From the NCBI RefSeq assembly GCF_054482595.1, contig NZ_CM137008.1: 64,000 nucleotides of DNA. One strand, 5' to 3'. The position numbers and the translations under genes were made by a program. The notes beneath the pieces are model-generated. The model searched no databases. It was not told where the DNA came from and was given only the letters and a program-made list of their open reading frames with translations. Shown here one piece after another: positions 38,480-39,475 of this stretch. Position 1 is the first letter of the stretch; each line of letters begins with the position of its first letter.

Positions 38480-39475
38480 ATGAACGATAACGTTTTGCTC
38501 ATAGGAGCTTCCGGATTCGTAGGAACCCGACTACTTGAAACGGCAATTGCTGACTTTAATATCAAGAACCTGGACAAACAGCAGAGCCACTTTTATCCAG
38601 AAATCACGCAGATTGGTGATGTTCGTGATCAACAGGCACTCGACCAGGCGTTAGCCGGTTTTGACACTGTTGTACTACTGGCAGCGGAACACCGCGATGA
38701 CGTCAGCCCTACTTCTCTCTATTATGATGTCAACGTTCAGGGTACCCGCAATGTGCTGGCGGCCATGGAAAAAAATGGCGTTAAAAATATCATCTTTACC
38801 AGTTCCGTTGCTGTTTATGGTTTGAACAAACACAACCCTGACGAAAACCATCCACACGATCCTTTCAACCACTACGGCAAAAGTAAGTGGCAGGCAGAGG
38901 AAGTGCTGCGTGAATGGTATAACAAAGCACCAACAGAACGTTCATTAACCATCATCCGTCCTACCGTTATCTTCGGTGAACGGAACCGCGGTAACGTCTA
39001 TAACTTGCTGAAACAGATCGCTGGCGGCAAGTTTATGATGGTGGGCGCAGGGACTAACTATAAGTCCATGGCTTATGTTGGAAACATTGTTGAGTTTATC
39101 AAGTACAAACTGAAGAATGTTGCCGCAGGTTATGAGGTTTATAACTACGTTGATAAGCCAGACCTGAACATGAACCAGTTGGTTGCTGAAGTTGAACAAA
39201 GCCTGAACAAAAAGATCCCTTCTATGCACTTGCCTTACCCACTAGGAATGCTGGGTGGATATTGTTTTGATATCCTGAGCAAAATTACGGGCAAAAAATA
39301 CGCTGTCAGCTCAGTGCGCGTGAAAAAATTCTGCGCAACAACACAGTTTGACGCAACGAAAGTGCATTCTTCAGGTTTTGTGGCACCGTATACGCTGTCG
39401 CAAGGTCTGGATCGAACTCTGCAGTATGAATTCGTTCATGCCAAAAAAGACGACATAACGTTTGTTTCTGAGTAA
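38480..39475 (+). CDS. gne: NAD-dependent 4-epimerase, Gne/Gnu type (GlcNAc to GalNAc epimerisation)
   Basis: 331-aa ORF; Rossmann GASGFVG; catalytic Y-x3-K (YGKSK); location between wcaM and galF as in O157-type strains; absent from K-12. Confidence 0.8.
   Translation: MNDNVLLIGASGFVGTRLLETAIADFNIKNLDKQQSHFYPEITQIGDVRDQQALDQALAGFDTVVLLAAEHRDDVSPTSLYYDVNVQGTRNVLAAMEKNGVKNIIFTSSVAVYGLNKHNPDENHPHDPFNHYGKSKWQAEEVLREWYNKAPTERSLTIIRPTVIFGERNRGNVYNLLKQIAGGKFMMVGAGTNYKSMAYVGNIVEFIKYKLKNVAAGYEVYNYVDKPDLNMNQLVAEVEQSLNKKIPSMHLPYPLGMLGGYCFDILSKITGKKYAVSSVRVKKFCATTQFDATKVHSSGFVAPYTLSQGLDRTLQYEFVHAKKDDITFVSE

Follow-up and report, generated by a model that had tools for sequence, protein, structure and literature searches.

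gnu, a putative Und-PP-GlcNAc 4-epimerase gene between wcaM and galF, upstream of an Escherichia coli O160 O-antigen gene cluster

Results

Genes and features around the wcaM-galF spacer

We analysed a stretch of 64,000 nucleotides from contig NZ_CM137008.1 (NCBI RefSeq assembly GCF_054482595.1), read on one strand and referred to below as the window. The features relevant to this work are the following:

36928..38322, + strand: wcaM, final gene of the colanic acid cluster and upstream flank (NCBIfam NF007517 equivalog)
38337..39700, no strand assigned: variable spacer segment bearing gnu, approximately 1,364 bp (blastn of K-12 against the window)
38480..39475, + strand: gnu, assigned as an Und-PP-GlcNAc 4-epimerase gene, formerly gne, of the Z3206/ECs_2847 type, 331 aa (ORF, PF01370, identity to ECs_2847)
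39718..40611, + strand: galF, downstream flank (NCBIfam TIGR01105 equivalog)
40872..40879, + strand: ops element GGCGGTAG in a JUMPStart-like context, between galF and wzx (exact motif)
40961..47069, + strand: O-antigen cluster assigned to O160, with wzx, GT2, GT2, wzy, Stealth phosphotransferase and GT2 genes (100% identity to O160-annotated genomes, Pfam)

The ORF listing contained a 331-aa ORF with an ATG start spanning exactly positions 38480-39475 of the + strand. Both flanking genes were recognised by NCBIfam equivalog models, wcaM with a score of 1013.6 bits (NF007517; cut-off 808) and galF with a score of 681.5 bits (TIGR01105; cut-off 659.2). The product of the ORF matched the NAD-dependent epimerase/dehydratase family of Pfam (PF01370; E=8.5e-31, 107.6 bits for a cut-off of 20.9). 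A previous reading of this DNA, made from the sequence alone (the sequence-only reading), had placed a 331-aa SDR-type epimerase in the wcaM-galF gap; the ORF, its neighbours and the Pfam match confirmed this proposal.

The protein has a GxxGxxG Rossmann motif (GASGFVG, residues 9-15) and a YxxxK catalytic motif (YGKSK, residues 132-136), and this combination of an N-terminal GxxGxxG with YxxxK places it among the extended SDRs. No membrane segment was found in Gnu; the highest mean hydropathy over 19 residues on the Kyte-Doolittle scale was 1.45, at the Rossmann N-terminus. Since no 19-residue window exceeded this value, the membrane location of Gnu would be peripheral rather than integral.

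The ops element, which has an established role together with RfaH, is found at position 40872, downstream of galF. Both gnu and galF therefore lie upstream of, and outside, the RfaH-dependent O-unit operon, and gnu is presumably transcribed independently of this ops-controlled operon. The spacer did not contain more promoter-like or terminator-like sites than expected from shuffled sequences. One 10-of-12 promoter-like site was present upstream of gnu (38347-38374), with no evidence of function. Between gnu and galF, the 9-mer TCCGAGTAA occurs twice in perfect tandem at 39560-39577 (+), as it does in O157 Sakai.

The encoded protein is identical to Gnu from E. coli O157:H7

The sequence-only reading had suggested a comparison with Z3206 (gne/gnu) of E. 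coli O157. Direct protein comparison with ECs_2847 from the O157:H7 strain Sakai revealed 331 identical residues out of 331, and a single RefSeq protein, WP_000999466.1, is common to the gene in the window, the copy in EDL933, where it goes by the name Z3206, and the copy in the O160 strain NCTC11023. The RefSeq name of this protein is N-acetyl-alpha-D-glucosaminyl-diphospho-ditrans,octacis-undecaprenol 4-epimerase.

At the nucleotide level, the gene was identical to that of NCTC11023 and displayed 10 differences over 996 bp when compared with Sakai. All 10 were found at the third codon position and all were synonymous, consistent with purifying selection. The Sakai gene ECs_2847 also sits between wcaM and galF, and is annotated as 'gne, UDP-galactose 4-epimerase'. 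The gene in the window is located upstream of galF as is gnu, in the order wcaM-gnu-galF found in O157 Sakai and described in PMC7685785.

The gnu-bearing spacer and the K-12 spacer have unrelated sequences

The window has 1,395 bp between wcaM and galF, and K-12 MG1655 has 174 bp (2114328-2114501). The sequence-only reading had given the K-12 gap between wcaM (b2043) and galF (b2042) as empty, and these 174 bp indeed contain no annotated feature. Blastn comparisons showed that homology between K-12 and the window runs to 14 nt past the wcaM stop codon and restarts 17 nt before the ATG of galF, with 93.9% identity on the wcaM side and 93.4% on the galF side. Between these two points, the segment at 38337-39700 has a K-12 counterpart of 142 bp to which blastn detected no similarity; beyond the edge 14 nt and 17 nt, no residual K-12 homology was found in the gnu spacer by this method. 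Scattered matches between the two spacers in a MAFFT alignment were considered and dismissed as spurious. A search of the edges of 38337-39700 for terminal direct or inverted repeats and for IS ends returned none, only short chance matches.

Among 5,426 complete E. coli genomes, 1,306 (approximately 24%) carry the gnu-bearing spacer, with an identity of 96.8-99.8%. Partial matches in 1,537 genomes were considered as possible gnu remnants, which would be a sign of loss. This was rejected: similarity in these genomes is confined to the end of wcaM and the 14 spacer nucleotides that follow it, so that the partial matches are uninformative on the direction of change. The gene is also found at the same locus in other genera (PMC3682973), which makes a loss in the K-12 lineage as plausible as a gain here. 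On the basis of these sequence comparisons, the gnu spacer and the K-12 spacer are better described as two alternative haplotypes. The word 'inserted', used for this gene in the sequence-only reading, is imprecise for two such haplotypes, which are devoid of mobile-element scars.

The GC content falls from approximately 0.52-0.56 to approximately 0.42 within the 3' half of wcaM (37500-38322), ahead of the gnu spacer. This decrease and the approximately 94% identity of wcaM and galF to K-12 are typical of recombination-prone O-antigen flanks.

The adjacent O-antigen cluster corresponds to serogroup O160

The 6,606-bp interval between galF and gnd was 100% identical to that of several complete genomes whose annotation assigns wzx and wzy to the O160 family. 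This interval was found at an identity of at least 99% in only 15 of the 5,426 complete genomes. Judged by this identity, the serogroup of the O-antigen cluster in the window is O160. The products of the cluster are Wzx, a pair of GT2 transferases, Wzy (for which there was no Pfam match), a Stealth protein containing CR1-CR4 and one further GT2 transferase. Pfam analysis of the cluster (40961-47069) identified no gne or other epimerase gene, no initiating transferase gene and no sugar-nucleotide genes. In agreement with this result, a tblastn search of the 64-kb window with K-12 GalE returned no GalE/Gne-like gene besides gnu.

The O160 repeat unit contains exactly one GlcNAc and one GalNAc (Liu et al. 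2019 review, PMC7685785). The presence of GalNAc in the O-unit of the matched serogroup, which had been put forward as a check, is therefore borne out. The same review deduced that GalNAc is the initial sugar of O160, gnu being just upstream of galF. The proposal that this O-antigen starts with or contains GalNAc thus holds for its content; 'starts with' agrees with the review, as a deduction that rests on gnu itself. Given that O160 has GalNAc and that no gne was found in the cluster or in the window, no source of GalNAc other than Gnu is apparent.

The Stealth-family protein (Pfam CR1-CR4) is encoded at 45225-46244 (+), inside the O160 cluster. O160 is one of six E. coli serogroups with a sugar-to-sugar phosphodiester bridge in the repeat unit (PMC9912281), and a Stealth protein in the cluster fits this sugar-1-phosphate phosphodiester bridge.

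Two O160 human clinical strains, FXCREC004 and FXCREC035 (NZ_CP196743.1 and NZ_CM135826.1), have an ISApl1 interrupting the gnu spacer region, together with IS3 and ISApl1 insertions within the O-antigen cluster, which suggests that the O-antigen is inactivated in these isolates. Downstream of the cluster, short overlapping ORFs were found at approximately 48840-49280, between gnd (47218-48624) and ugd (49583-50749). At this site, the NCTC11023 annotation records a tnpA pseudogene of IS200/IS605 that is broken by an internal stop, and the ORFs in the window are probably the same IS200/IS605 remnant.

Gnu is only distantly related to GalE

Gnu did not reach the cut-off of any NCBIfam equivalog. 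The top models were those for HpnA, LegB and OleD-type reductases, with scores of 95.5 bits for HpnA and 68-74 bits for OleD. The GalE equivalog model (TIGR01179) gave 71.4 bits for a cut-off of 262.3 and aligned with residues 5-170 only; identity to K-12 GalE was 30% (E=8e-19). Gnu also matched Pfam 3Beta_HSD (E=3e-27), and the sterol enzyme NSDHL (PDB 6jkg) was among its matches in the structural database. The copy of the PDB searched contained no solved structure from the Gnu clade, the best match being 8rdg (E=2e-17). SDRs acting on lipid substrates (HpnA, OleD, 3-beta-HSD and NSDHL) therefore outscore GalE as matches to Gnu.

Taken with the lack of a solved Gnu-clade structure in that search, this ranking points to a possible lipid-SDR ancestry of the clade. 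We consider it rather doubtful, though conceivable, that the Gnu clade descends from a lipid-handling SDR lineage and not from nucleotide-sugar epimerases, with recognition of the polyprenyl diphosphate perhaps of an undescribed kind. Such an ancestry, if true, concerns the known Gnu family and not this particular locus.

A weak tblastn match of Gnu was found elsewhere in the window, at 60335-60562 (27% over 81 aa, E=5.5e-4). It is probably the Rossmann region of the SDR-like yeeZ, which adjoins the his operon in Sakai.

Gnu as the probable source of the lipid-linked first sugar

The protein could in principle be a classical Gne, a UDP-GlcNAc/UDP-GalNAc 4-epimerase whose UDP-GalNAc would be used as donor by a glycosyltransferase or by WecA. 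The O157 gene was first assigned in this way, as it still is in the Sakai annotation, and the protein shares with GalE its fold, its motifs and the 30% identity described above. A score so far under the GalE cut-off argues against this function, as does the phylogeny: Cunneen et al. 2013 (PMC3682973) placed the O157 enzyme in a separate clade D, apart from the GalE/Gne clade A, and named its gene gnu. In O86, a gene identical to this upstream gene coexists with a true gne inside the cluster and both are required, indicating that the two genes differ in function. Finally, the O157 enzyme, identical to the protein studied here, was reported to be inactive on UDP-GlcNAc and to form UndPP-GalNAc from the UndPP-GlcNAc that WecA produces (Rush et al. 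2010, as cited in PMC3682973). A classical Gne activity is hence very unlikely. The sequence-only reading had left the choice between UDP-GalNAc and Und-PP-GalNAc as the form in which GalNAc is supplied; the published biochemistry supports Und-PP-GalNAc and not UDP-GalNAc.

An intact gnu might also be dispensable, as a recombination remnant that hitch-hiked with its flanks, the true first sugar of O160 being GlcNAc. The presence or absence of gnu was as predicted from the chemical structure in 104 of 115 E. coli serogroups, with 10 cases of gnu or gne present against prediction (PMC3682973), and such cases would be compatible with a remnant, as would the occurrence of the gnu spacer in about 24% of complete genomes and in many serogroups. 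A dispensable gene is however difficult to reconcile with an O-antigen that contains GalNAc when neither the cluster nor the whole window has a gne, or with an intact ORF that differs from the O157 copy by synonymous changes only. We regard this explanation as extremely improbable.

Collectively, the data indicate that the ORF at 38480-39475 is very probably gnu, encoding the Und-PP-GlcNAc 4-epimerase that gives O160 its lipid-linked first sugar. In the corresponding pathway, the housekeeping initiating transferase WecA would make undecaprenyl-diphospho-GlcNAc, which Gnu, as an NAD-dependent SDR, would epimerise to undecaprenyl-diphospho-GalNAc, as described in the literature for the identical O157 protein. 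On the model of other SDR 4-epimerases such as GalE, C4 would be oxidised transiently by bound NAD+ and then re-reduced from its other side; the likely catalytic pair is formed by Tyr132 and Lys136 in the YxxxK motif. Und-PP-GalNAc would then provide the lipid-linked first sugar from which assembly of the O160 repeat unit starts, and would be extended by the three GT2 transferases and the Stealth hexose-1-phosphate transferase. The finished unit would be flipped by Wzx and subsequently polymerised by Wzy.

Discussion

The presence of gnu marks the strain as not K-12-like at the O-antigen locus. What is gained in annotation is the serogroup, O160, and the prediction that the O-unit starts with a GalNAc made on the lipid carrier. 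The practical value of the assignment is that it avoids a mis-annotation as gne or galE, which is still present in the older annotation of Sakai. The literature already covers the gnu gene, where it lies, what it does and its link with O160, and the RefSeq name of the protein is already correct. Beyond correct annotation, nothing about gnu is new here: it is an ordinary gene, documented next to the O160 cluster.

Among known systems, the closest is Gnu from O157:H7 (Z3206/ECs_2847; clade D, Cunneen et al. 2013), which has the identical protein, a gene likewise located between wcaM and galF, and flanking spacer sequence that is approximately 98% identical. The two loci differ by the 10 synonymous nucleotides and by the cluster found downstream, O157 in one case and O160 in the other. 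The GnaB/WbpP UDP-GlcNAcA 4-epimerases (clade B) are also SDR 4-epimerases that were formerly lumped with Gnu as Gne; they belong to another clade, act on another substrate and have been set apart from Gnu by their description in the literature. GalE/Gne enzymes (clade A) have in common with Gnu the extended SDR fold, the GxxGxxG and YxxxK motifs and the epimerisation of a hexose at C4. Unlike Gnu, whose substrate is a lipid-linked sugar according to the literature, they act on nucleotide sugars; K-12 GalE is only 30% identical to Gnu, which scores far under the cut-off of the GalE model. The position of the genes also distinguishes the two groups, true gne genes being found within O-antigen clusters and gnu upstream of galF.
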